Below are positions 2,592 through 31,996 of a stretch of 32,035 nt of DNA, in pieces. Source of the DNA: a virus (Duplodnaviria; Heunggongvirae; Uroviricota; Caudoviricetes); the IMG/VR virus record IMGVR_UViG_2690316263_000015, positions 1-32,035 of that record; one strand, 5' to 3'. The first letter of the stretch is position 1. Every line of letters begins with the position of its first letter. The position numbers and the translations under genes are program-made. The notes below the pieces were generated by a model, which was not told the origin of the DNA, did no database searches, and saw nothing but the letters and a program-made list of their open reading frames with translations.

Positions 2592-3587
2592 GTGACCGTG
2601 AGAGCACTACTGACCCCTGAAATTGCCCCGCGTATGGGGATCGTATTGTTCAGGCCAGGTTCAGAGCTGATGCCCCTGTTTATGCAGGGGCGTGTCCTGC
2701 TGGAGCCTGAGCCGGAACGTTACTCATCTTTCGCCAGTGGTGCCGTTCCGGCGGCATCACAACCGCTGGCGGATGATCCTGCCGTTCGGGCCGTGTTCCG
2801 CAATGAGGCAGTGATCCGTCGTGCTGGTGGCGTGGAATGTCTTGAAAGCTGGTTACTTCGTGAAAAAGGCTGCCAGTGGCCTCATTCCGACTGGCACAGC
2901 GAGAACATGACCACAATGCGACACGCTCCGGGCGCAATCCGTCTGTGCTGGCACTGCGATAACCAGCTGCGCGATCAGTTCACGGAACGGCTGGAATCAA
3001 TGGCAACGGATAACTGTGCCCGCTGGGTGTTGTCTGTTGTGCGTCGGGATCTCGGTTTTGATGACAGTCACGTTGTGACAATGCCGGAACTGTGCTGGTG
3101 GCTGATTCGTAATGATCTGGCGGATGCCTTACCGGAAAGTGCAGCCCGTAAGGCACTGAGATTACCGAAGCCTGTTGTGCCATCTGTCACCCGGGAAAGT
3201 GACCTTGTGCCTTCGGTTCCTGCCACCAGCATCATCCAGGATAAAGCAAAAAAGGTGCTGGCGCTGAAAGTGGATCCGGAGTCGCCGGAGTCTTTTATGT
3301 TACGCCCAAAACGTCGCCGCTGGGTTAATGAAAAGTACACGCGCTGGGTTAAGACACAGCCGTGTGCATGTTGTGGAAAGCCCGCTGATGATCCCCACCA
3401 CCTGATAGGTCACGGTCAGGGTGGAATGGGAACAAAAGCGCATGACCTCTTTGTGTTGCCTTTGTGCAGAAAGCATCACGACGAGCTGCATGCGGATACC
3501 GTGGCATTTGAAGAGAAGTATGGCTCCCAGCTGGAGCTGATATTTCGTTTTATCGATCGTGCGCTGGCAATAGGCGTACTGGCGTAA
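2592..3587 (+). CDS. DUF968 (YdfU-like) protein with C-terminal Cys/His metal-binding motif
   Basis: 331-aa ORF; C-terminus CACCGKPADDPHHLIGHG ... LCRKHHDELH resembles DUF968 proteins found upstream of Q in lambdoid prophages. Start ambiguous (GTG 2592 or GTG 2598 after GAGGTG). Confidence 0.55.
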   Translation: MTVRALLTPEIAPRMGIVLFRPGSELMPLFMQGRVLLEPEPERYSSFASGAVPAASQPLADDPAVRAVFRNEAVIRRAGGVECLESWLLREKGCQWPHSDWHSENMTTMRHAPGAIRLCWHCDNQLRDQFTERLESMATDNCARWVLSVVRRDLGFDDSHVVTMPELCWWLIRNDLADALPESAARKALRLPKPVVPSVTRESDLVPSVPATSIIQDKAKKVLALKVDPESPESFMLRPKRRRWVNEKYTRWVKTQPCACCGKPADDPHHLIGHGQGGMGTKAHDLFVLPLCRKHHDELHADTVAFEEKYGSQLELIFRFIDRALAIGVLA

Positions 3588-3600
3588 GTGGAGAACGAGC

Positions 3601-4353
3601 ATGAACCTTGAAGCCTTACCGAAATATTACTCCCCAAAATCTCCAAAATTGAGCGATGACGCACCGACGACAGGCTCTGGTGGTTTAACAATTACGGATG
3701 TAATGGCTGCGCAGGGGATGGTGCAGTCGAAAGCACCGCTTGGGTTTGCCTTATTCCTGGCAAAAGTTGGTGTTCAGGATCCTCAATTTGCGATTGAAGG
3801 TCTGCTCAATTACGCGATGGCACTGGATAACCCGACATTGAACAAATTGAGTGAAGAAACCCGGTTACAGATCATCCCTTACCTTGTGAATTTTGCCTTT
3901 GCTGATTATTCCAGGTCTGCGGCAAGTAAGGCTCGCTGTGAGCATTGTGCTGGTACTGGATTTCATAATGTATTGCGCGAAGTGGTGAAACACTCCAGAA
4001 GCGGGGAATCTGTTATCAAGGAAGAGTGGGTGAAGGAACTATGTCAGCATTGTCATGGTAAGGGAGAAGTCAGCACAGCGTGCAGAGGGTGTAAGGGTAA
4101 AGGTATTGTCCTGGATGAAAAAAGGACCCGGCTTCATGGCACGCCTGTTTATAAGATTTGTGGGCGTTGCAATGGAAACCGGTTTAGCCGTTTACCAACC
4201 ACACTGGCGCGGCATCATGTCCAGAAGCTGGTACCAGACCTGACAGATTATCAGTGGTACAAAGGATATGCAGATGTCATTGATAAACTGGTTACAAAGT
4301 GCTGGCAGGAAGAAGCATATGCTGAGGCGCAATTAAGAAAAGTGACGAGATAA
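3601..4353 (+). CDS. antitermination protein Q-like late-gene regulator
   Basis: ATG 3601 after GGAGAA. 250 aa with paired Cys motifs (CEHCAGTG ... CQHCHGKG ... CRGCKGKG ... CGRCNG) as in Q-family antiterminators; followed by a promoter plus terminator pair. Confidence 0.7.
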   Translation: MNLEALPKYYSPKSPKLSDDAPTTGSGGLTITDVMAAQGMVQSKAPLGFALFLAKVGVQDPQFAIEGLLNYAMALDNPTLNKLSEETRLQIIPYLVNFAFADYSRSAASKARCEHCAGTGFHNVLREVVKHSRSGESVIKEEWVKELCQHCHGKGEVSTACRGCKGKGIVLDEKRTRLHGTPVYKICGRCNGNRFSRLPTTLARHHVQKLVPDLTDYQWYKGYADVIDKLVTKCWQEEAYAEAQLRKVTR

Positions 4354-4384
4354 ATGATTTTCGCCGAAGATGGCGACATAATGC

Positions 4385-4413
4385 TTGCATTTTTCAAAAA
4401 ATATGGATAAGAT
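4385..4413 (+). promoter_or_regulatory. putative Q-dependent late promoter (PR'-like)
   Basis: TTGCAT (4385-4390), 17-nt spacer, TAAGAT (4408-4413), about 30 nt downstream of the Q stop and about 45 nt upstream of an intrinsic terminator. The arrangement mimics lambda PR'/tR'. Confidence 0.35.
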
Positions 4414-4458
4414 TTTTCCAACGATGGGCTTTGTATGTCTACCGTTGATAAGATTTAA

Positions 4459-4486
4459 GAACCCGCCACTGAGCGGGTTTTTTTAT
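4459..4486 (+). terminator. intrinsic terminator (tR'-like)
   Basis: ACCCGC-cactga-GCGGGT stem-loop followed by a T7-8 run (aacccgccactgagcgggttttttta). Confidence 0.6.
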
Positions 4487-4606
4487 GCCTGAAAAACGGT
4501 ACAGGACGTTAAACGCGCTGGTGGTTGCGAATATTGGTCTTTCGGCTTGTATTTTTGTAAATCGATATATACTTATCTTGTGACCAGTAATGTCAGGGCA
4601 ATTGAT

Positions 4607-5350
4607 ATGAATGAAGCTTGTTCTGTTGTTTTTGTTCATTCCCCGTTTGTTGTGCTCTTTGAAGGAAAAGAGCTCTCTCTGGAAAGTGGTAGTGCACTTC
4701 TTGTCAGGGGGGGAGCTGGATCGTTATTGCCCTTTTCGGAATGTTTTCGGCGAATAAGTCTCAGTGAATCGACAATTATCCGTTACCTGTTGTGTGGAGA
4801 CGAAAAACAGGATGTAGTTTTAGTCCGGCAAATACCACGATATCTTTGCGTGAGTTTTCCCAAGGCAGAATTGATGGGCATCCTGATTGATTATCTTTGT
4901 GAGGAAAAGATTCATACGGACAATTTAGCGGAAATGCTTTCCTTTTCGTGTCTGGCGTTTTTCTCATCAGAGAAAATGTTTTCGTCGTTTCTGACCGCGT
5001 GTATTGGCAATATTAGTGACAGGCTTAGTGCATTGTTTCGTACGGACATTGCAGCAAACTGGACTCTGAGAGATGTGTCTTCGCGGTTATGTATCAGTGA
5101 AAGTTTGTTAAAAAAAAGACTGAAAGAAGAAGGCACCTGTTTCAGTGAGTTGTTGCTTACAGAGAGAATGAGAATGGCAGCAATGCTGTTGAATCAATCT
5201 CGTTGCGCCATCAACAGAATCGCTGCTCAGTGTGGCTATAATTTTACATCTTATTTTATCAGCGTATTCAGGAGTTATTTTGGTGTTACACCGGCAGGTT
5301 ACAGGATGGCTGCATTCAATGAGATGAGTTTAAGTGTTACTCAAGAATAA
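4607..5350 (+). CDS. AraC-family transcriptional regulator, AppY/EnvY-like (moron)
   Basis: ATG 4607. C-terminal double helix-turn-helix (WTLRDVSSRLCISESLLKKRLKEEGTCFSELLLTERMRMAAMLL ... AAQCGYNFTSYFISVFRSYFGVTPAGY); the N-terminal CSVVF motif recalls AppY. Gene is visibly AT-rich relative to neighbours and followed by its own terminator. Confidence 0.8.
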   Translation: MNEACSVVFVHSPFVVLFEGKELSLESGSALLVRGGAGSLLPFSECFRRISLSESTIIRYLLCGDEKQDVVLVRQIPRYLCVSFPKAELMGILIDYLCEEKIHTDNLAEMLSFSCLAFFSSEKMFSSFLTACIGNISDRLSALFRTDIAANWTLRDVSSRLCISESLLKKRLKEEGTCFSELLLTERMRMAAMLLNQSRCAINRIAAQCGYNFTSYFISVFRSYFGVTPAGYRMAAFNEMSLSVTQE

Positions 5351-5374
5351 TTGAATTTTGCACTCATTGAAAAC

Positions 5375-5399
5375 AGGCTCGCTGCGGCGGGCCTTTTTT
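5375..5399 (+). terminator. intrinsic terminator after the AraC-family gene
   Basis: AGGCTCGC-tgcg-GCGGGCCT hairpin followed by TTTTTTAT. Confidence 0.55.
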
Positions 5400-5537
5400 A
5401 TATCCGCGCCACGTCCGGCGCACATCAAAAAAACCACAGAGCCTTTCAGGGGTGAGCTTACGGGATGGTCAGTGTGACTTTCTCTGTGGGCTGGTCACCC
5501 CCGGGCGCAGGCTCACCCACTAAAAGGAAAAGTCACG

Positions 5538-5963
5538 ATGTTTGGTATTTTCAAAAAGAAAACCCGCAAGGCCATTACTGAAGTGAAGAAGATGGAGAAC
5601 CGCGACGCAGTGGAGGCGACCGTCTGGGGCGCGTATTCCATAGCATTCGCCGACGGCACCTGTGATGCGAAAGAAATCGCTGTACTGGAAAAAACCATTG
5701 CAGCACTTCCTGCCTTTGCGCCGTTCTCCGGTGAGATTGCACAAATGAGTGCAAATATCCGCGCCCGTTATGAAGCGTCACCTCGTAGTGCGAATGCTCA
5801 GGCTTTGCGTGAACTGGCTGATGTGGCAGGAACCGCCGAAGCGGTTGATGTGCTGTGCCTGTGTCTCGATATTGCTGACCAGGATGGCATTGGTCCGGAT
5901 GAAGAAGCGCAGCTCAAGAAAATTGCTCAGGCGCTGCAGTTGCCGCTGGAGCAGTACCTGTGA
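5538..5963 (+). CDS. TerB-family (tellurite-resistance TerB-like) protein
   Basis: ATG 5538 after AAAGGAAAAG. 141 aa; the fold pattern (VWGAYSIAFADGTCDAKEIAVLEK ... VLCLCLDIADQDGIGPDEEAQLKKIAQALQL) parallels the two DG-containing helical repeats of TerB. Confidence 0.65.
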   Translation: MFGIFKKKTRKAITEVKKMENRDAVEATVWGAYSIAFADGTCDAKEIAVLEKTIAALPAFAPFSGEIAQMSANIRARYEASPRSANAQALRELADVAGTAEAVDVLCLCLDIADQDGIGPDEEAQLKKIAQALQLPLEQYL

Positions 5964-21559: not shown

Positions 21560-22635
21560 ACGATAACGTCACGCTACGGGTAAATGGCCGGGAGTGGAAT
21601 GGCTGGACATCGGTGCGCATCGGTGCCGGTATTGAACGGCTGGCGCGGGATTTCAGTGTGGAGATCACCCGCCAGTGGCCGGGAGATGAGGGTATCACCA
21701 CGCTTCAGCCGCGCATTAAAAACGGTTCAAAAGTGGAAGTGCTGATTGGTGATGAGCTGGTGATCACCGGCTGGGTGGAGGCGACGCCCGTTCGTTACGA
21801 TGCCCGTTCGGTCAGCACCGGTATTGCCGGACGCAGTCTGACCGCTGACCTGATTGATTGTGCAGCCGAACCGACACAATTTAACGGACGATCGCTGGTA
21901 CAGATTGCGCAGGCGCTTGCTGCGCCTTTCGGCATTGAGGTGGTGAACAGCGGTGCGCCGTCGGGTGTTATTCCGGATGTCCAGCCTGATCACGGTGAAA
22001 CGGTGATCGAGGTGATCAACAAAATACTCGGTCAGCAGCAGGCGCTGGCTTATGACGACCCGCACGGCAGGCTGGTGATTGGTTGTATTGGCTCAACGCG
22101 GGCACATACCGCGCTGGTACTTGGGGAAAACATCCTTTCCTGTGATACGGAGAAGAGTATCCGGGAGCGGTTTTCAGTTTACCAGGTGGCGGGGCAGCGT
22201 GCCGGAAACGACGATGATTTCGGTGAGGCCACCACCACCGCGCTGCGGGCCCGCACAGAGGACGCATTTATTGCCCGTTACCGTCCGATGTATATCAGGC
22301 AGACAGGGCAGGCTACGGGGGCAGGCTGTATTGCCCGTGCTGACTTTGAAGCCCGACAACGGGCGGCGCGGACGGATGAAACCACCTATGTGGTGCAGGG
22401 CTGGCGACAGGGTAACGGTACGCTGTGGCAGCCCAACCAGCGGGTGATTGTCTTCGATCCGGTCTGTGGTTTCGACAATACCGAACTGCTTGTCTCGGAA
22501 GTCACGTTTACTCAGGACCAGAACGGCACCCTGACGGAAATCCGTGTCGGCCCGCCTGATGCTTATCTGCCTGAACCCGAAGCCCCCGGCGCGCGGAAAA
22601 AGAAAAAAGCCAGAGTACAGGAGGACCCGTTCTGA
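21556..22635 (+). CDS. baseplate hub / tail protein (Mu gpP-like)
   Basis: 359 aa, ATGA-coupled to the upstream gene; position between the N-like and V-like genes. Confidence 0.65.
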   Translation: MNDNVTLRVNGREWNGWTSVRIGAGIERLARDFSVEITRQWPGDEGITTLQPRIKNGSKVEVLIGDELVITGWVEATPVRYDARSVSTGIAGRSLTADLIDCAAEPTQFNGRSLVQIAQALAAPFGIEVVNSGAPSGVIPDVQPDHGETVIEVINKILGQQQALAYDDPHGRLVIGCIGSTRAHTALVLGENILSCDTEKSIRERFSVYQVAGQRAGNDDDFGEATTTALRARTEDAFIARYRPMYIRQTGQATGAGCIARADFEARQRAARTDETTYVVQGWRQGNGTLWQPNQRVIVFDPVCGFDNTELLVSEVTFTQDQNGTLTEIRVGPPDAYLPEPEAPGARKKKKARVQEDPF

Positions 22636-23183
22636 TGAGGACGATTGAAGCCATGCAGCGACAACTCCTCGGCCTGATTGGGCGGGCCGTGGTAAAAAGC
22701 ATCAGTGCCGCCACGAAATGTCAGACCGTGGATGTGTCCCTGATTGCCGGTGAACCCAAAGCCGGGGTTGAACATCTTGAACCCTACGGTTTTACCGCAA
22801 GGGCAAACAGCGGTGCGGAAGCGGTGGTGTTGTTTCCGGATGGCGACCGTTCTCATGCGGTGGTTGTTACGGTGTCGGACCGTCGCTACCGGCTGAAAGG
22901 GCTGCAGACGGGTGAGGTGGCTGTCTATGACGATCAGGGGCAGTCCGTGACGCTGACCCGGGAGGGGATCGTGGTGGACGGTGCAGGTAAAACGATCACG
23001 TTTCGCAATGCACCTGAAGCACGTTTTGAAATGGACCTGGAAGTGACAGGACAGGTGAAAGACCTGTGCGACTCCGGCGGCACCACCATGTCAGCGATGC
23101 GGCTTGCCTATAACGGGCATCGTCACAGAGAGAACGGTCAGGGCAGTAACACCGACAAACCGGATAAAGCGATGGAGGCATGA
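22635..23183 (+). CDS. baseplate assembly protein V (spike, Mu gp45-like)
   Basis: 182 aa; position directly after the P-like hub gene. Confidence 0.7.
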   Translation: MRTIEAMQRQLLGLIGRAVVKSISAATKCQTVDVSLIAGEPKAGVEHLEPYGFTARANSGAEAVVLFPDGDRSHAVVVTVSDRRYRLKGLQTGEVAVYDDQGQSVTLTREGIVVDGAGKTITFRNAPEARFEMDLEVTGQVKDLCDSGGTTMSAMRLAYNGHRHRENGQGSNTDKPDKAMEA

Positions 23184-23608
23184 TGGAACTGTGGCTGACG
23201 GTGAACGGTAAACGCACCTGCGCCAGCGCACCGCTGGATCCGCTGACCCGCGCCGTGGTGATTTCCCTGTTTACCTGGCGGCGGGCGGAGCCTGATGACA
23301 ACGCCGACGTCCCGATGGGATGGTGGGGGGATACCTGGCCTGCGGTACAGAATGACCGTTACGGCTCCCGACTGTGGCTGCTTCAGCGCAGCAAACTGAC
23401 CAATCAGCTGGTGCAGACGGTAAGGGGGTATATCCGCGAATGCCTGCAATGGATGATTGATGATGGCGTGGTGTCCCGTATTGATCTGGATATCCGCCGC
23501 ACCGGGATTAATGAACTGGGTAACAGTATCACTCTCTGGCGTCGTGACGGACCGGTAATGATTTCTTTTGATGATCTGTGGAGTGCGATAACGCATGGCG
23601 GACAGTGA
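23180..23608 (+). CDS. baseplate protein (Mu gp46-like)
   Basis: 142 aa; position between the V-like and J-like baseplate genes. Confidence 0.55.
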   Translation: MMELWLTVNGKRTCASAPLDPLTRAVVISLFTWRRAEPDDNADVPMGWWGDTWPAVQNDRYGSRLWLLQRSKLTNQLVQTVRGYIRECLQWMIDDGVVSRIDLDIRRTGINELGNSITLWRRDGPVMISFDDLWSAITHGGQ

Positions 23609-24653
23609 ATTTCAGCGCCCGACGCTGGCAGAAAATATCAGTATGCTCCGTAACGATGTATTCGCCAGGCTGGACGTCAGCGACACGCTCCGGCGCATGG
23701 ATGAAGACGTGCGGGCAAAGGTGTATGCGGCGGCGCTGCATACGGTTTACGGTTACATCGATTATCTGGCAATGAACATGCTGCCTGACCTGTGCGATGA
23801 GTCCTGGCTGGCGCGACATGCTGCGATGAAACGGTGTCCGCGCAAGGGGGCCACGGCTGCCAGCGGGTATATGCGCTGGGGAGGTGTCAGCGATGGCCTG
23901 AAGGTGACTGCCGGGAGCGTGATTCAGCGCGATGACCTGGTTCAGTACACGGCAACTGCTGATGCAACCAGCTCCGGTGGTGTCCTGCGCGTGCCGATCA
24001 CTTGCTCAAGTGCAGGCGCGGTCGGTAACGCTGACGACGGTACGGCATTAATCCTGGTCACGCCGGTGAATGGTCTGCCGTCTTCCGGTGTTGCAGATAC
24101 CCTGACTGGCGGATTCGATACTGAAGATCTGGAAACGTGGCGCGCCCGCGTCATTGAGCGGTATTACTGGACGCCTCAGGGCGGGGCTGACGGGGACTAT
24201 GTCGTCTGGGCTAAAGAAGTGCCCGGCATTACCCGCGCATGGACATACCGTCACTGGATGGGAACGGGAACTGTCGGTGTGATGATTGCCAGCAGTGACC
24301 TGATTAATCCCATTCCGGAAGAATCAACGGAAACGGCGGCAAGACAACACATTGAGCCACTGGCCCCGGTGGCAGGCTCTGATTTGTATGTATTCAGGCC
24401 GGTGGCACATACGGTGGATTTTCATATCCGCGTGACGCCGGACACACCGGAAATACGGGCTGCCATCACCGCGGAGTTGCGTTCGTTCCTGCTGCGTGAT
24501 GGTTATCCGCAGGGAGAACTGAAGGTATCGCGTATCAGTGAGGCGATTTCCGGTGCGAACGGGGAATACAGCCATCAGTTGCTTGCACCAGCAGACAATA
24601 TCTCCATTGCGAAAAATGAACTGGCGGTTCTGGGGGCGATTTCATGGACGTGA
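23595..24653 (+). CDS. baseplate J-like protein (Mu gp47-like)
   Basis: 352 aa; size and position match baseplate J. Confidence 0.75.
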
Positions 24654-25228
24654 CAAACGATGATTACATCCGTCTGTTGTCGGCACTGCTGCCCCCTGGT
24701 CCGGCGTGGTCAGCCAGCGATCCGGCGATTGCCGGTGCGGCACCGTCATTAACCCGCGTTCATCAGCGTGCGGATGCCCTGATGCGGGAGCTGGATCCGC
24801 GCACCACCACCGAACTGATAAATCGCTGGGAGCGTCTGTGCGGCCTGCCGGATGAATGTATTCCCGCAGGGACACAGACCCTTCGCCAGCGTCAGCAACG
24901 ACTGGATGCGAAGGTTAACCTGGCGGGCGGCATCAACGAGGATTTTTACCTTGCACAGCTTGCTGCCCTGGGCAGACCAGACGCTACCATCACGCGATAC
25001 GACAAAAGCACGTTCACCTGCTCATCGGCCTGTACTGACGCGGTGAATGCGCCGGAATGGCGGTATTACTGGCAGGTCAACATGCCAGCCGCCACCAACA
25101 CCACCTGGATGACATGTGGCGATCCCTGTGATTCCGCACTGCGTATCTGGGGCGACACCGTTGTCGAGTGCGTGCTTAACAAACTCTGCCCGTCGCATAC
25201 CTACGTAATTTTTAAATATCCGGAGTAA
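24644..25228 (+). CDS. tail protein, DUF2313 / Mu gp48-like (YmfQ-like)
   Basis: 194 aa, Cys-containing C-terminus; located between baseplate J and the tail fibre, as in Mu-like and e14-type modules. Confidence 0.65.
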
Positions 25229-25231
25229 TCC

Positions 25232-26059
25232 ATGCATCGTATAGACACGAAAACCGCGCAGAAGGATAAGTTCGGCGCGGGTAAGAACGGTTTTACCCGT
25301 GGTAACCCCCAGACTGGCACGCCTGCCACCGATCTGGATGATGACTACTTTGACATGTTGCAGGAAGAACTTTGTAGCGTGGTGGAGGCATCCGGTGCCA
25401 GTCTGGAGAAGGCGCGGCACGACCAGCTGCTTACCGCGCTTCGTGCGCTGCTGTTAAGCCGCAAGAATCCGTTTGGCGATATCAAATCGGATGGCACGGT
25501 GAAAACGGCTCTCGAAAACCTTGGTTTGGGAGAAGGTTCAGCATTACCCGTTGGCGTGCCTGTTCCGTGGCCTTCCGCCACTCCGCCAACAGGCTGGCTG
25601 AAATGCAACGGTGCCGCTTTTTCTGCAGAAGAATACCCGGAACTGGCAAAGGCTTACCCGACCAATAAATTGCCTGATTTACGCGGTGAATTTATTCGTG
25701 GCTGGGATGATGGACGTGGAGTGGATGCGGGGCGAGCCTTGCTAAGTCTTCAGGATGACTCTTTTGAAGCTCACAGACATGAGTCCTTTTTTTACGCGGG
25801 TATTTCACGCAATGAAACACCATTAAAAAATCTTCCAAGTTCAGACGAGATGCTGACTTTAAGTTCCACAACTAATGCCTTGTCCCCGGACAGTATTGAT
25901 GCCACCAATTCGTTAATTGGTAATGATGATTACAACTGTCTGATTGAAGGAAATAAAAATAACAAACGAACGGCAACGGGGTTGAGTACCAGTATTGTCG
26001 GTGCAGCAGAGACACGCCCACGTAATATTTCATTTAATTACATTGTGAGGGCTGCATGA
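25232..26059 (+). CDS. tail fibre protein: constant N-terminal part fused to the currently expressed variable C-terminal part with a tail-collar-like receptor-binding region
   Basis: ATG 25232 after GGAG. N-terminus [29 protein letters not shown] typical of Mu S / side-tail-fibre N-termini; collar-like motif [33 protein letters not shown]; crossover site inside the gene at 25509-25534. Confidence 0.8.
25509..25534. repeat. left recombination site of invertible segment (hix/gix-like, 26 bp)
   Basis: CTCTCGAAAACC-TT-GGTTTGGGAGAA resembles Hin/Gin crossover sites and is an imperfect inverted repeat of 27459-27484. Confidence 0.6.
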
Positions 26060-27080: not shown

Positions 27081-27458
27081 TTATCTCCCTTTCGCTATAT
27101 AGCAAAGATTAAACCCACCGCTACCTGACATACGGGCTGTAAAACCCGTTCTTGAAGTACCAGTTGAGTTAACTCCATAAGCAGGCATGGTTGTTGGAGA
27201 AAGCAGAGACTCCTGGATATCTGCCATTGTCAGTGTAATTGATTCGACCCGCGCGGGGAAAGGTAGCGGGAAAACAACATTCGTCCCTGTCTGTCCAACG
27301 GGGAAACCGAAAATACCCCATTGTGTAATTACCCCATCCGGCCCCTTACTCCATCCAGATTTAGGATTCGGCCAGTCTGCTGCTCCAGAGTGCCCCGTTG
27401 TAAAACTACTCATATCTGGTACTTGCCCGGTATCCGTTCCGACGTTCCTCGTTGCCGC
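27081..27458 (-). CDS. alternative promoterless tail-fibre C-terminal segment (Sv'-like), expressed only after inversion
   Basis: Minus-strand frame is open from the right crossover site to TAA (27081-27083), 4 nt before tfa'; it shares the crossover-encoded GLGE junction with the fibre gene. The N-terminal 'MMPFARY' part of the ORF-track call lies across the recombination site and is probably not coding. Confidence 0.6.
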   Translation of the reverse strand, partial: AATRNVGTDTGQVPDMSSFTTGHSGAADWPNPKSGWSKGPDGVITQWGIFGFPVGQTGTNVVFPLPFPARVESITLTMADIQESLLSPTTMPAYGVNSTGTSRTGFTARMSGSGGFNLCYIAKGR

Positions 27459-27484
27459 TTCTCCCAAACCAACGTTTATGAAAA
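27459..27484. repeat. right recombination site of invertible segment (hix/gix-like, inverted)
   Basis: Its reverse complement TTTTCATAAACG-TT-GGTTTGGGAGAA matches the left site over the GGTTTGGGAGAA half-site and the central TT. Confidence 0.6.
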
Positions 27485-27538
27485 TGCAGAAATAACGAGC
27501 AAATGGCATCATTCCTGCTTTTGTCAGGGGGATCTACC

Positions 27539-27667
27539 ATGCTTATTGGCTATGTACGCGTATCAACAAATGACCAGAACACAGATCTACAACGTAATGC
27601 GCTGAACTGTGCAGGATGCGAGCTGATTTTTGAAAACAAGATAAGCGGTACAAAGTCCGAGACCTAG
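27539..27667 (+). pseudogene. Pin/Gin/Hin-family serine DNA invertase, truncated after about 40 codons
   Basis: MLIGYVRVSTNDQNTDLQRNALNCAGCELIFENKISGT matches the invertase N-terminus nearly residue for residue (catalytic Ser in VRVSTNDQ), then diverges (KSET) and stops at TAG 27665-27667. The remainder of the gene is absent from the window. Confidence 0.8.
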
Positions 27668-27714
27668 GGCTGACATTGCTGTTCTTGATGCAAATTAAAG
27701 TATTTAATAGTGAG

Positions 27715-27742
27715 TAGCGGCCTTACTAAGGTAAGGCCGCTA
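27715..27742. other. perfect 12-bp stem hairpin at the prophage/islet junction (possible bidirectional terminator or recombination scar)
   Basis: TAGCGGCCTTAC-taag-GTAAGGCCGCTA; lies between the invertase remnant and the 3' end of the minus-strand DUF262 gene; no clean T-run on either side. Confidence 0.35.
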
Positions 27743-27762
27743 TAATCATTTTATTAATTGCA

Positions 27763-29712
27763 TTAATCGTGTTTTGGCCATACTTTCAATGCAATTTCCC
27801 CCAACTTTTTACCCCGCTCCAGGATTTCATCCTCATCCCATTTATCCTTAACTATAAGTGGAATGTTCAGTCGTAGATTGGTGTGGACGATGAGAGCATC
27901 ACGTTTTTTCAGAAATACAGCATTCTGAACAGAACGGTTTACGCTAAGGTTAAGCAAAGTTAGATTTCCCAAAGTAGCTATCGCTTGTTGCCGTTTCCTT
28001 ACCAGTAGCTGTTCAGGGGTAAGATCGGTTCCAGACAGAACAATTTGGTTCAATACCGTAGCATCTGAATTTGTCACCATACGACCATTTTCGAGAGGCC
28101 AACAGGAATACCAACTTTGGGGCATAAGATGATCGATATCGAGATTAGAAAGATTTGGAACATCAGGCTTTTCGGTCTTCACTTGGCGACAAAGTTCTCT
28201 TTCAAGTTCCGTTAACATTGAGCGCATTTTCGGTGCGTCGAGCCTGCCAGGATAAAGTGGAGCATTGATGCAAGCGTTGAGAAATTCTGAGTCACCAGGC
28301 CAACGTGAGGCTTCGCCATTTAAGTTATTGAGGATATTACGTAACTCAACACTGGAAATTTCCGTTTTAGCCAAGTGCCGCAATACATTCATAAATACAT
28401 TGTTGTAATTCTTTGGCGTCAGGCCACATACGGCTCTTCGTACTACGTAGGAGACAAGATCATTATACATGACTGCTTTCTCATCATCAGCGATGTTAGC
28501 TATCGAAATGAACAAAGCAAGCGGATAAAGTGTCGTCACATCATAGTCTGCGATGCGATATCCAAAGTGTGAGATGGGGGTTGTGCCAAAACCATCAACC
28601 AATTCTTTATATTGTAATGCATATTGTTTGAGGCGCTTTACTTGCAGATCTGCTCGTTGTGAAGACAAGTCCTTACTTACATAATCACGATACTCATTGT
28701 AAAGACGAGACAGATCAATTTCACGCTGCCTTTCTGATTGCAATGTCGCATGTACTAGCCACTCCATGCGTGGTTTATTAATACGTCCACGGCGTTGTTT
28801 TTCCGACCAGTATTTATCTTCAAAGCTCTTCCACTCATTTTCATATAATTCAATAGCATTAATATTTTCATGCTCTGCGCACATAAAGATATAGTTGCGA
28901 ATAAGATCCGTAGCATGAAGTTCCGCCCCTCGCCCATTTAATGTTTCAAAAATTATTTGGGCATCATCTTCAGCTTCGAGAAATATGCTTACCAGTTTCA
29001 GATCTGTTAAGACAGCCTCAATTAGAGCTACAGCATTTTCTTGTGGTGAGTGGTTTTCTATTTTAATCCATTTTATAAAGGCTTTAGTAAAAAAACATAA
29101 TGCTTCTAGTGATGGCGGGTGATTAAAACGCTTACGCAACGTACCATGCTGCGTGAAACTATCAGAGAATACGTCCCGGAGATCGTCAATCTTTTCAACA
29201 TTAAAACTTTGAATAAAATGAGTTTGATCCCGAAAAGTTGGCCACAGTTTGAAGCGTTCTACTTCTTTATTTCGCATTGTGTCTTCGTTTGAGTTTTTCA
29301 GGCAAGGCGAAATGAGAGCCTCTAAGCTGGAAAGATCCGTAGCACGTAATGCTAATCGGATGGATGCCAGAACATATTGAAGAGTGGTCAATCGTTGCTG
29401 ACCATCAATAATATGTATGGAATCTACACCTAATAATCCTTTTTTTGATTGAGGTTCCAGTACAACCGCACCAAGGAAATGGGGAGTTGGTTTTGTACCC
29501 GAGAGCCGGGATTGTGCTTTCTCTAGGATATCCTCCAGTAGAGCTGACCATTGGTCTTGCTGAGTCCATACATAGGCACGTTGATAGAATGGAACACAGT
29601 ATTGTCGGCGGTCTTGAAAAAGTTGTTGGACAGTTAGCGTCTCGGATTTCATGGTATACCTGTAAGCGACATTGTACAAAAGTGAGGAGTTAATCTGATT
29701 TAGAACAATCAT
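27763..29712 (-). CDS. DUF262-DUF1524 nuclease, GmrSD-like (type IV modification-dependent restriction candidate)
   Basis: 649-aa minus-strand ORF. N-terminal DUF262 motifs (FYQRAYVWTQ, IIDGQQRLTTL, FETLNGRGAELHATDLIRNY) and C-terminal DUF1524 His-Me finger (DIDHLMPQSW, GNLTLLNLSVNRSVQN). Likely true start at internal ATG 29652 (MKSETL). Gene is AT-rich. Confidence 0.8.
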   Translation of the reverse strand: MIVLNQINSSLLYNVAYRYTMKSETLTVQQLFQDRRQYCVPFYQRAYVWTQQDQWSALLEDILEKAQSRLSGTKPTPHFLGAVVLEPQSKKGLLGVDSIHIIDGQQRLTTLQYVLASIRLALRATDLSSLEALISPCLKNSNEDTMRNKEVERFKLWPTFRDQTHFIQSFNVEKIDDLRDVFSDSFTQHGTLRKRFNHPPSLEALCFFTKAFIKWIKIENHSPQENAVALIEAVLTDLKLVSIFLEAEDDAQIIFETLNGRGAELHATDLIRNYIFMCAEHENINAIELYENEWKSFEDKYWSEKQRRGRINKPRMEWLVHATLQSERQREIDLSRLYNEYRDYVSKDLSSQRADLQVKRLKQYALQYKELVDGFGTTPISHFGYRIADYDVTTLYPLALFISIANIADDEKAVMYNDLVSYVVRRAVCGLTPKNYNNVFMNVLRHLAKTEISSVELRNILNNLNGEASRWPGDSEFLNACINAPLYPGRLDAPKMRSMLTELERELCRQVKTEKPDVPNLSNLDIDHLMPQSWYSCWPLENGRMVTNSDATVLNQIVLSGTDLTPEQLLVRKRQQAIATLGNLTLLNLSVNRSVQNAVFLKKRDALIVHTNLRLNIPLIVKDKWDEDEILERGKKLGEIALKVWPKHD

Positions 29713-30495
29713 TTTATTCTGCTATGATACAACGTATTTGTTACCGGTTAAGTAAAAAACGCGTCTGAACGCTGACGTTTTAGGGCTTTACTGGTTATTC
29801 TTTCTTATCTCTTCATCATCCCATCGGCATCCTGTCGAGGTTGTTGACTTGTTGTTATTTATTTTGTCTAGGCGCTGTTTAATTATTATTGATAGAACTG
29901 ATGGTGAGAGGTGATTGAAATTGTAGGCACGTCGTTTGCAAGGACGTGCTACGACTGGCTGGTGAACTTCCGATAGTGCGAGTATTGAATGATTTCCTAC
30001 GTGCTAACTAGTGAACAAACAACTCTTCAGTAGACTCTCAGGTATCATTCAGAGTTTCCTGAACGAAAGTTTTAGCTCAATCTTTATCTGCAGTATGTCT
30101 AACTGAAAAACTATCGTTGCTGGTGGCTTTTACGATCATCTCCACATCGTCATAACGCTTGCCAATGTGTTGGGTTAACTCTTCCTTTAACGCGTCCACA
30201 GCGCCATTTGGCATTTGGTCATTTTGTCTTTGGTTATGGAGATCTCAATACGCATAACACTTCTTTTGTACTGCGTTTGTAGACAGTATTATTCTTATCT
30301 GTGTAAATAAACAGTATCAAGACTTCGTTTTAGCTGCATAAGAAAAAAGAGATGGATACATTCGGAAAGATTTTGATGGTGGTAGGCTAAGTGAATAGCC
30401 TAAAGGTGTTTTACCCCAATTATTCCCCGGTATTTCTCCGCATAAAAAACAATCATAAAAAACCAGCCATAATAGGCTGGTTCTTAAGGGATTTT

Positions 30496-30544
30496 TGGTC
30501 GCACGAGAGGATTTGAACCTCCGACCCCCGACACCCCATGATGG
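30496..30544 (-). other. orphan 3' fragment of a tRNA-Pro gene (about 49 nt, T-arm and acceptor 3' strand with CCA); not a complete tRNA
   Basis: Minus-strand reading CATCATGGGGTGTCGGGGGTCGGAGGTTCAAATCCTCTCGTGCGACCA matches, from recall, the 3' part of enterobacterial tRNA-Pro (proM-like). No matching 5' acceptor strand or D-arm upstream. Confidence 0.6.
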
Positions 30545-31465
30545 TTATGATAGACCGTAGTATTTTTTCAGAGCCGCTGTAGCTGCTTGAGTTGCAGCAG
30601 CTATTCCTATGCCCAAAGTACCATGGGCTGCTTTACTCGCAATATTTGCCAACCATTTACTAACAGATTGACCATATTCACCACGTTTGTTAGCTATCGG
30701 GCCATCTTCACCAATAGCAATTTCTAAATCGTTAACATCAGATTTAGGGAACCCCTGAGCTGAGAGAAACTCTTTTAATGACTCAGTGTCGTTTTTTACG
30801 ACGTGGTTATTCACAGAAAATGAGTTTTCATTTCCGAAGTTTATGACAGTATTGTCTCCAAAAATTGAGTTATGGAATAATGAAGACGTGTCGATATTTT
30901 TAAGTTTTTCTGTCATGTTTTTCTCATCTGGTATTTCAGAAACTTGATCAGAAAGTTCAAGTATAAAATCAAGTAGCCGTGACCTGACCTGAGTTAAGAT
31001 GGAAGTAAAGTTATGTAGTGCGATCTCTTTATAACAGCGTGTTAACTCATAGCCTTTATCGATACCTTTGCAGTACTTAACTAACGCGTAATCTAAAGGA
31101 ATTGGCTGCTGAAGAGCATGGCTATCACCAGCATTGGTTACTAGTTCTTCGATTTGACTGATTGAAAGCCTCACATTACTGGTTGTAGCATCTTCATAGT
31201 CATCTTCACTTAGATAGCCAATCGGTAACGGAAAAGCTCTATATAGGCGAACGCCGTTGTTCAGATCTGCAAGAATTCTTGTGCCAACAATTCTATAATC
31301 TGGAAGGGAAACTGAATCAGGATAACCGTTTATCTCATGATTTACCCATGCAGCAAGCTCCTTTTTCCCGATAGAGAAAAGAAGGATCTTCGTTTTTATG
31401 AGAGCATTTGTTGTGCCTTCATCACCAGTACTTAGTATCTGAATGATTTCTTGCAGTTGGTTCAT
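30545..31465 (-). CDS. abortive-infection-like protein (AbiTii-type N-terminal domain suspected)
   Basis: 306-aa minus-strand ORF. N-terminus (LQEIIQILSTGDEGTTNALIKTKILLFSIGKKELAAWVNHEINGY) resembles AbiTii-domain proteins as I recall them; C-terminus has an Ala/Gly-rich amphipathic tail. AT-rich. Family call unverified. Confidence 0.45.
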   Translation of the reverse strand: MNQLQEIIQILSTGDEGTTNALIKTKILLFSIGKKELAAWVNHEINGYPDSVSLPDYRIVGTRILADLNNGVRLYRAFPLPIGYLSEDDYEDATTSNVRLSISQIEELVTNAGDSHALQQPIPLDYALVKYCKGIDKGYELTRCYKEIALHNFTSILTQVRSRLLDFILELSDQVSEIPDEKNMTEKLKNIDTSSLFHNSIFGDNTVINFGNENSFSVNNHVVKNDTESLKEFLSAQGFPKSDVNDLEIAIGEDGPIANKRGEYGQSVSKWLANIASKAAHGTLGIGIAAATQAATAALKKYYGLS

Positions 31466-31479
31466 ATGTCTTATCCCAT

Positions 31480-31505
31480 AAAAAAAGCCCGCATTAGCGG
31501 GCTTT
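31480..31505 (-). terminator. intrinsic terminator on the minus strand downstream of ssrA
   Basis: Minus-strand GCCCGC-taat-GCGGGC followed by T7; about 130 nt beyond the tmRNA 3' CCA and 14 nt before the Abi-like ATG. Confidence 0.55.
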
Positions 31506-31633
31506 CATGTAACTAAAGAGCCGCGGCTCCTTTGCGTATCCTTTTTTGTCCCCTCACCGTCTGGTCGGTGTCCTGCTGAGACTGCTAACTTCCTGTTTTT
31601 ATTGGTGTTGTCCTTACACCGTCCAATCATGAT

Positions 31634-31996
31634 TGGTGGAGCTGGCGGGAGTTGAACCCGCGTCCGAAATTCCTACATCCTCGGTACTACATGCTTAGTC
31701 AGTCTTTACATTCGCTTGCCAGCTGCGGACGGACACGCCACTAACAAACTAGCCTGATTAAGTTTTAACGCTTCAACCCCAGGCAGGGCTTCCACGCGAT
31801 CTCTTTTGGGTTTGACCTCTCTTGATCCCCGTCCTAAGAGCGGAGGCTAGGGAGAGAGGGCTCTAAGCAGGTTATTAAGCTGCTAAAGCGTAGTTTTCGT
31901 CGTTTGCGACTATTTTTTGCGGCTTTTTACGAGGCCAACCGCCCCTCGGCATGCACCTTGGGTTTCGCAAATCCCGTCGAATCCAGAATCAGCCCC
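31634..31996 (-). ncRNA. ssrA: tmRNA (transfer-messenger RNA, SsrA)
   Basis: Reverse complement reads GGGGCTGATTCTGGATTCGACGGG ... GGACGCGGGTTCAACTCCCGCCAGCTCCACCA, 363 nt, with the tag reading frame GCAAACGACGAAAACTACGCTTTAGCAGCTTAA (ANDENYALAA) at 31875-31907. Confidence 0.95.

Follow-up and report, generated by a model that had tools for sequence, protein, structure and literature searches.

Probable cargo arm of an SfV/e14-like prophage, with gmrSD and AbiTii genes, beside ssrA in Escherichia coli

GmrSD proteins are type IV, that is, modification-dependent, restriction endonucleases. Cleavage that depends on glucosyl-hydroxymethylcytosine (glc-hmC) or hydroxymethylcytosine (hmC), together with restriction of T-even phages, has been demonstrated for the UTI89, CT596, and Eco94 enzymes, and the location of gmrSD genes next to prophage tail-fibre genes was already noted by He et al. 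2015 (PMC4437046). Among the T-even phages, T2, T6, and others are restricted by the UTI89 enzyme (the 'UT enzyme'), whereas T4 is not, and the T4 inhibitor IPI* does not affect this enzyme; Eco94GmrSD (93% identical) carries out nucleoside triphosphate (NTP)-stimulated cleavage of glc-hmC and hmC DNA, and the catalytic residues of this His-Me finger nuclease are D507, H508, and N522 (PMC4437046). The lactococcal AbiT system comprises two genes, AbiTi and AbiTii, both of which are needed (PMC13064643), and AbiTii domains elsewhere are fused to HEPN domains (Anantharaman et al. 2013, PMC3710099). Here we analyze positions 27661 to 31633 of a 32,035-nucleotide virus record (IMG/VR IMGVR_UViG_2690316263_000015; the whole stretch is referred to as the window). 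The DNA of the window is from E. coli. The stretch contains a gmrSD gene, a DinI pseudogene, a tRNA-Pro 3' fragment, and an AbiTii-domain gene, and it is adjoined at 31634 by ssrA, which encodes transfer-messenger RNA (tmRNA). With a probability of roughly 85%, we regard it as the accessory ("moron") arm of an SfV/e14-like temperate prophage in ssrA and not as an independent island (Table 1).

Table 1. Features of the cargo arm and its surroundings, with positions numbered in the window
Feature	Positions	Strand	Description
Left inverted repeat (crossover site) of the invertible tail-fibre segment	25516..25535		20 nucleotides, pairs with 27458-27477 at 95%
Right inverted repeat of the invertible segment	27458..27477		matches annotated IR-R (right inverted repeat) of phage LLS
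Truncated pin/gin-type serine invertase gene	27539..27667	+	~40 codons homologous to pinE; frame stops at 27665-27667
gmrSD cargo module (terminator hairpin, coding sequence, promoter region, relic attachment site)	27661..29997	-	common to prophages at different attachment sites
GmrSD single-chain type IV (modification-dependent) restriction endonuclease, 629 aa	27763..29652	-	Pfam, PADLOC, motifs
Degenerate ssrA-type attachment-site relic (terminator, trailer, ssrA 3' core), upstream of gmrSD	29753..29920		alignment
DinI-like pseudogene	30011..30255	-	one frameshift, two in-frame stops
Apparent fossil proL attachment site	30457..30543	-	tRNA-Pro(GGG) 3' fragment 30497-30543 plus 40 nucleotides of downstream flank, including terminator hairpin 30458-30485
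Exchangeable attachment-site-proximal cargo slot	30545..31480		AbiTii here; 2.7-kb cassette in UTI89
AbiTii-domain protein, 306 aa	30545..31465	-	AbiTii alpha+beta domain, residues 4-192; conserved helical C-terminal region, 193-306
Phage-borne ssrA trailer copy, 153 nucleotides	31481..31633	-	ends in intrinsic terminator 31508-31482 (GCCCGC-UAAU-GCGGGC + U7)
ssrA (tmRNA, tag ANDENYALAA)	31634..31996	-	ARAGORN; Rfam RF00023, 295.8 bits; 3' end 31634

The borders of the insertion are defined by copies of the 3' end of ssrA. The attachment (att) repeat consists of the 3' 32 nucleotides of this gene (31634-31665). The relatives examined include seven complete genomes that have the window's exact layout and many extraintestinal pathogenic E. 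coli (ExPEC) strains, UTI89 among them, that have a variant of it. In UTI89, the prophage runs for about 40 kb to a tyrosine integrase gene and three more genes, and it is followed, just before glaH, by a 185-bp direct repeat that corresponds to window positions 31481-31665 (the ssrA 3' 32 nucleotides plus the 153-bp trailer). In c1-17, which has the window's layout, the 32-nucleotide ssrA repeat comes after the integrase gene and two further small genes and borders a second integrase island, and the arrangement is a tandem array. Across related E. coli genomes, intact ssrA repeats occur solely at ssrA itself and beyond the integrase. Because the insertion runs from ssrA to the distal repeat, the AT-rich 4 kb is inside the prophage.

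The empty site supports the same borders. A reconstructed junction of ssrA, native trailer, and glaH is present, uninterrupted and at 99% identity, in 709 of the 5426 complete E. coli genomes. An empty ssrA flank had been proposed as a way to define the borders, and where it occurs, the stretch and the prophage are absent together. Among the contexts examined, the stretch is never seen at ssrA without the prophage. It has no integrase of its own, the integrase being about 40 kb away at the far prophage end, and a search for direct or inverted repeats around 27657-31633 returned only short chance matches. The stretch also has none of the hallmarks of an Islander-type island: its only tRNA-type target-gene DNA (tDNA) is a 57% identical ssrA relic and a proL fragment, and no intact cognate fragment is present. 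As expected of prophage cargo, it is located between the prophage's own attL and attR, and an equivalent interval exists in a viable phage.

That phage is LLS, which was isolated on K-12 and has a genome of 42.9 kb; the unit in UTI89 and c1-17 is of comparable size, about 42-43 kb. The LLS genome has, in order, tail fibre, inverted repeat, Fin invertase, seven small genes, a feature annotated as 'tmRNA pseudogene / attP', a hypothetical gene, integrase, excisionase, and genes of the yfdQ/yfdP families. Its attP region is 90% identical to window positions 31481-31672, including the terminator, the trailer, and the ssrA 3' end. Because the LLS attP contains all three, the phage brings with it a replacement for each. 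The interval between invertase and attP is thus a normal cargo region in LLS-type phages, and the cargo genes that LLS has there differ from those of the window. The original prediction held that the prophage ends abruptly inside its invertase gene; this is contradicted by the att repeats that enclose the stretch, by the equivalent interval in LLS, and by the recurrence of the same invertase junction at four chromosomal sites, as described below.

SfV carries gtr serotype-conversion genes between its tail-fibre genes and attP. SfV- and LLS-type phages share with the window an AT-rich foreign cargo at the same genome position. They also share an attP with a target-restoring tDNA 3' fragment, which is expected of elements that restore their tDNA target (PMC4383910). 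The window differs from SfV-type cargo in that its genes relate to anti-phage defence instead of O-antigen modification, and in that the arm apparently keeps two fossil att sites from earlier module exchanges. Positions 1-25000 of the window are 97% identical to Shigella phage SfV and Escherichia phage SKA5. The fraction of G and C is 0.37-0.44 over 27600-31400, compared with 0.54-0.62 in the tail genes at 22000-25800, in keeping with the earlier description of the region as AT-rich up to the tmRNA 3' end.

The tmRNA 3' flank was said to be an integration hotspot, and the tmRNA locus is indeed a known site of integration in E. coli and its defence hotspot #9, shared by a variety of elements (Hochhauser et al. 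2023, PMC10121019). The window shares with hotspot #9 the chromosomal site and the delivery of defence genes by prophages and other mobile elements. The published work catalogues the occupancy of the site, with no mention of GmrSD, AbiT, or the structure of slots inside prophages (PMC10121019). An Rfam scan of the window at gathering thresholds identified tmRNA as the sole RNA family. The phage-borne trailer is 89% identical to the native trailer beside glaH in UTI89. When 31481-31633 is folded as RNA, the terminator hairpin is seen and the structure is more stable than those of shuffled sequences (z = -3.0). A 41-codon open reading frame (ORF) on the minus strand of the trailer (31505-31630) is probably spurious.

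The gmrSD gene encodes what is, by its sequence, a known enzyme: a near-copy of the characterized UTI89 restriction enzyme. The two proteins differ by seven substitutions (A46V, K154N, R175H, K190E, L346S, V394A, and A559S relative to UTI89_C2960). GmrSD_N (PF03235, DUF262) matches at 3.1e-34 over profile positions 1-199 of 199, GmrSD_C (PF07510, DUF1524) matches at 4.6e-20, and the PADLOC mREase_IV model matches with 1405 bits over positions 1-629 of 629. The protein carries the DGQQR NTPase motif at residue 83 and retains D507, H508, and N522 in the 629-aa numbering. It thus has a DUF262 domain with DGQQR and a DUF1524 domain with the catalytic residues, fused in one full-length polypeptide. 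A 649-aa form that would start at an upstream ATG (29712) was rejected, as the PADLOC profile alignment, the annotation by the Prokaryotic Genome Annotation Pipeline (PGAP), and the length of the published enzyme all favour 629 aa. A promoter scan gave a weak promoter-like site near gmrSD (29751-29724), with a count of promoter-like sites not above that of shuffled sequence. Because both the UTI89 enzyme and the tail-fibre location are published (PMC4437046), this part of the arm is already known. The UTI89 locus is also alike in its setting, since the 629-aa EcoUTI89GmrSD is encoded between a truncated invertase gene and ssrA in a prophage of the same type. It differs in its neighbour on the ssrA side, which is AbiTii in the window and a PD-T4-3 cassette in UTI89.

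The invertase gene that precedes gmrSD is a remnant. Homology to pinE of the K-12 prophage e14 spans 27458-27660 at 96% identity and stops at 27660, so the end near 27656 given in the original prediction was correct to within 4 nucleotides. The remaining 54-codon ORF matches only positions 2-47 of the 145 in the Pfam Resolvase profile, and in all relatives examined, PGAP labels the remnant 'recombinase, missing C-terminus'. The right inverted repeat of the neighbouring tail-fibre segment is also the left edge of the DNA common to all gmrSD-bearing prophages. In strain 20KM0223N, segment 25516-26827 is in the opposite orientation, in a cassette that is 98% identical. Because 20KM0223N has the same invertase truncation and yet has the cassette in the opposite orientation, the observation suggests that the segment is flipped in trans by invertases of other prophages. 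A strong hairpin with a 13-bp stem (27714-27743) separates the stop codon of the invertase from that of gmrSD and is part of the shared module. It probably terminates the two convergent transcripts.

The gmrSD module is found in prophages at several chromosomal sites. The gene is present in 306 of the 5426 complete genomes, and in every context examined, it is located behind the same truncated invertase and invertible tail-fibre cassettes in an e14/SfV-like prophage. The module is 90-98% identical in VTB96926v, ARS-C101, 20KM0223N, and locus L009. The prophages that bear the junction are at ssrA in the window and UTI89, at an intact proL in VTB96926v, at icd in 20KM0223N, and near paoD in ARS-C101. 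A query across the pin/gmrSD junction (27660/27661) is covered in 288 genomes, and about 1300 other E. coli genomes have an intact pinE and lose homology at exactly 27660. Because the former share the junction and the latter diverge at the same base, the sequences point to one ancestral event and subsequent spread via recombination. In the ARS-C101 prophage (locus L010, 8610-11786), gmrSD is followed in the same cargo arm by a gene for a 1058-aa type ISP restriction-modification enzyme.

The icd-site prophage relates the gmrSD module to e14. The end of e14 in K-12 has the order pinE, mcrA, attR(icdC). In 20KM0223N, the module replaces pinE after nucleotide 136 and all of mcrA, to 7 bp before icdC. 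Because it replaces exactly the 3' part of pinE and mcrA, GmrSD and McrA, both of which are type IV nucleases, are alternative occupants of one slot. The window and e14 are thus alike in prophage family (ymfQ, invertible stf/tfa cassettes, and pin), in the slot between invertase and attR, and in having a type IV modification-dependent nuclease as its occupant. They differ in the enzyme, as McrA is of the HNH type, is unrelated to GmrSD, and acts on C that is methylated or hydroxymethylated, and in that pinE is intact in e14, whereas in the window the cargo has replaced the 3' three-quarters of pin. Also, the window prophage is in ssrA and not in icd.

The original prediction reported about 780 bp of noncoding DNA. 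The two genes are about 890 bp apart, and the DNA between them is not anonymous but made of recognizable relics. The first is an ssrA-type att relic at 29753-29920, which is colinear with the active copy at 31479-31644 at 57% identity (z = 14 versus shuffles). It is about 70% identical (z = 52) to an att copy in strains 2013C-4991 and 504239, and positions 29925-29997 match the sequence that follows the att core in these two strains. The relic accompanies the gmrSD module wherever the module is found, including prophages at icd, proL, and near paoD. Because it travels with the module, gmrSD was probably once the att-proximal gene of an ssrA-integrating phage. The second relic is the DinI-like pseudogene, on whose 45-aa ORF the Pfam DinI model matches and which PGAP annotates as 'frameshifted; internal stop'. 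Its identity to phage PhiR63_1 DinI by tblastn is 78%, split between two frames that contain stops.

The third relic is derived from proL. The tRNA-Pro 3' fragment that was predicted at first is confirmed, as 30497-30543 corresponds to the 3' 46 nucleotides of the intact proL tRNA-Pro(GGG) with a single 1-nucleotide deletion. In the alignment, the match extends through about 60 nucleotides of downstream DNA, and a terminator scan detects the hairpin at 30458-30485. Positions 30457-30545 match all E. coli proL loci at 87-89%, and 29815-30545 is 98.5% identical to the 3' part of the intact proL and the DNA that follows it in VTB96926v. In that strain (locus L008, 3389-7759), a block of truncated invertase, gmrSD, and DinI pseudogene abuts the intact proL, and an IS2 element is inserted. 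In this block, the proL fossil of the window has its living counterpart. From these alignments, 30457-30543 appears to be a fossil att site from a proL-integrating relative.

The DNA between the proL relic and the ssrA trailer is exchangeable. Homology between the window and UTI89 breaks off at 30544/30545, at the border of the proL relic, and starts again at 31481, in the T-run of the ssrA terminator. UTI89 has in this place a cassette (locus L002, 9115-11851) that encodes a PD-T4-3 protein (453 bits in PADLOC; LEM-3-like GIY-YIG), a protein of 97 aa that matches no family, and a protein with a DpnII/MboI nuclease domain. The last of these also resembles the PADLOC Aga_Helical-REase models. 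AbiTii, at 94-100% identity, is the ssrA-proximal gene in otherwise different prophages of CFT073 and strain 190. The slot beside attP thus swaps defence cassettes.

The AbiTii-domain protein is 100% identical to a protein of CFT073. It matches Pfam AbiTii (PF18864) at 3e-33 over profile positions 3-184 of 189 and the PADLOC AbiTii model with 113 bits (4.5e-33). These hidden Markov model searches, with those for GmrSD, support the original assignment of the two minus-strand genes to defence families. That both families are already described was stated correctly. The novelty expected from the combination, or from the true family of the Abi-like gene, is small, given that GmrSD is 7 aa from a published enzyme and the second gene truly belongs to the AbiTii family. 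The protein belongs to a family whose members are about 305 aa long and are conserved from end to end in gamma-proteobacteria, at identities as low as 37%, with invariant residues both in the AbiTii domain and in the C-terminal third. Several distant homologues are mislabelled 'response regulator receiver protein' by their sources. An AlphaFold model (predicted local distance difference test [pLDDT] 78) has an alpha+beta N-terminal domain, a disordered linker (204-223), and four C-terminal helices. In PHROGs, the C-terminal 123 aa correspond to phrog_16090, whose function is unknown. Comparison with the Protein Data Bank by fold and by sequence, with viral structures, and with NCBIfam gave no informative match, and no enzymatic domain is recognizable by these searches. 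A C-terminal membrane anchor was considered and is not claimed, as the last helix has a Kyte-Doolittle mean of about 0.8 (hand calculation), below the usual 1.6, and has Glu in distant homologues.

The AbiTii protein resembles lactococcal AbiT and the HEPN-fused proteins in that its N-terminal 190 or so aa match the AbiTii profile over almost its whole length. It differs from them in having neither an AbiTi partner nor HEPN but a conserved helical C-terminal region of about 115 aa, and in being prophage-borne in Enterobacteria. Apart from the 45-aa DinI remnant ORF, no ORF of at least 60 aa flanks the gene, and the C-terminus is not a HEPN domain. Eight homologues were examined in their genomic context, and those of Citrobacter, Yersinia, and Pantoea are the last cargo genes of SfV/Mu-baseplate or P2-like prophages. 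Two of the eight directly precede, within 18-97 bp, a nuclease-type gene (DUF4145, a HEPN family, in Pantoea, locus L018, 5001-6782, and HNH_5 in Sinobacterium, locus L020, 5001-7093), which hints that some family members may work with a separate nuclease. The remaining homologues are solo genes in variable regions. As a best guess, AbiTii could be a stand-alone abortive-infection or sensor(-effector) protein that has the helical C-terminal third as its output.

A serious alternative, though one that we consider on balance unlikely, is that AbiTii is not a defence effector but either an orphaned sensor or regulatory half that has lost its nuclease partner, or an accessory of lysogeny or attP that is kept for its position. 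Lactococcal AbiT needs both of its proteins, and other AbiTii domains are fused to HEPN (PMC13064643, PMC3710099). The window has no gene like the DUF4145 (HEPN) or HNH_5 genes that follow the Pantoea and Sinobacterium homologues, and the absence of a detectable enzymatic fold also fits an orphan. However, homologues with 37-100% identity preserve the solo protein over its whole length, including invariant residues of the C-terminal third, the gene is solo in most contexts sampled, and the UTI89 replacement cassette holds defence-type genes, including one of the validated PD-T4-3 family.

The position of the AbiTii gene behind ssrA suggests how it might be expressed. Its ATG (31465) is 16 nucleotides past the ssrA terminator (31508-31482), and a simple consensus scan of the minus strand between ssrA and this ATG found no sigma-70-like site. 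In Citrobacter freundii (77% protein identity; tmRNA, trailer, and AbiTii at 4469-5921 of locus L016) and Yersinia proxima (49%; 3450-4915 of locus L023), AbiTii is co-oriented with the tmRNA gene about 170 nucleotides past its 3' end, and in Yersinia proxima, it is directly behind a terminator-like hairpin. Because of the 16-nucleotide spacing, the lack of a sigma-70-like site, and the arrangement kept in three genera, this geometry suggests that AbiTii may be transcribed by read-through from ssrA. Such read-through would mean that AbiTii is expressed only in the integrated state. A more speculative extension, which we think rather doubtful, is that the solo AbiTii is a self-contained Abi gene with a new helical effector domain, expressed by ssrA read-through only, and that the arrangement has been selected for integration-dependent expression of defence.

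Several observations weigh against the interpretation of the stretch as functional prophage cargo. A DNA-level search of the INPHARED phage collection found no phage with this gmrSD or AbiTii and matched only the 5' end of the invertase, DinI, and attP pieces; no sequenced free phage in that collection carries either gene, so packaging of this cargo is unobserved. The truncated invertase, the pseudogenes, and the att relics mean that the prophage could be partly defective. The similarity of the ssrA relic is weak (57%), with support mainly from the intermediate sequence in 2013C-4991 and 504239, and the evidence for read-through consists of geometry and a simple consensus scan. AbiTii itself is without a demonstrated function in Enterobacteria, a recognizable enzymatic domain, a solved or viral structural relative, or an AbiTi partner.

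Some of these observations would also suit a fossil of a tandem array, in which the stretch is what is left of one or two older elements (at ssrA, and formerly at proL), trapped outside the functional phage and inherited only vertically. The two att relics, the DinI pseudogene, and the truncated invertase could be such leftovers, tandem islands do occur at the ssrA site, as with the second integrase island of c1-17, and the INPHARED result is as expected. We nevertheless consider this quite improbable, as the relics are within the active att pair, so that excision would take them along, and the unit of about 42-43 kb is near the 42.9 kb of LLS. Also, the 90-98% identity of the gmrSD module across four sites requires horizontal exchange and not vertical decay, and both ORFs are intact, with D507, H508, and N522 of GmrSD kept. 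The notion of a mobile defence islet that inserted independently at the tmRNA 3' flank, beside a prophage whose end was deleted within the invertase, is scarcely credible and already largely refuted: although the composition drops abruptly, pin homology ends at 27660, the ssrA hotspot is used by many kinds of element (PMC10121019), and relic att sites lie inside the stretch, the separate module of the original prediction would have to do without its own integrase, transposase, or flanking repeat, the prophage and the stretch lie together between the intact att copies, the same pin/gmrSD junction also occurs away from ssrA, at icd, at proL, and near paoD, and the stretch occurs at ssrA without the prophage in none of the contexts examined.

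Two other groups of genes at these insertions were observed. In UTI89, three genes between the distal att repeat and the integrase (locus L003, 29114-30984) encode a weakly HATPase_c_2-like protein, a DUF4325 STAS-like protein, and a hypothetical protein, for none of which did PADLOC report a hit. They occupy a second cargo slot, on the integrase side of attP, and may form an uncharacterized system. The second tandem island at ssrA in c1-17 (locus L015, 5141-10365) encodes a separate integrase, an ATP-binding protein of 572 aa, and a protein of 582 aa that carries the annotation 'response regulator receiver domain'.

The cargo-arm interpretation implies a history of modular recombination. In one ancestral event, the gmrSD gene together with the relic ssrA att site would have taken the place of the 3' three-quarters of pin and of any DNA beyond, and the module would then have spread among related prophages by homologous recombination. 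A block with DinI and the proL att site, from a proL-integrating relative, and a block with AbiTii and the ssrA attP would then have been joined on. The cargo would move only with the phage or through recombination between phages. In the lysogen, two single-gene anti-phage functions, GmrSD and AbiTii, would provide protection. GmrSD would cut incoming glc-hmC DNA by means of its N-terminal DUF262 NTPase and C-terminal DUF1524 His-Me nuclease, and AbiTii would probably be read through from the strongly transcribed ssrA and hence be expressed only after integration.

The apparent defence islet beside a broken prophage is thus most probably the prophage's own cargo arm, which is an ordinary and largely understood kind of feature, and the larger of its genes encodes a published restriction enzyme. 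The new details are modest and concern the structure of the slots, the att fossils, and the coupling of AbiTii to ssrA. Prophages of this type have two slots in which it is convenient to look for new cargo, namely, the e14/SfV slot between invertase and att, which holds McrA or GmrSD, and the slot at attP(ssrA), which holds AbiTii or PD-T4-3 with a DpnII-like nuclease. The fossil proL and ssrA att sites would record recombination of phage modules with different integration specificities. Finally, the location of AbiTii behind the ssrA terminator in three genera offers a hypothesis that is cheap to test, namely, that expression of this defence candidate may depend on integration.

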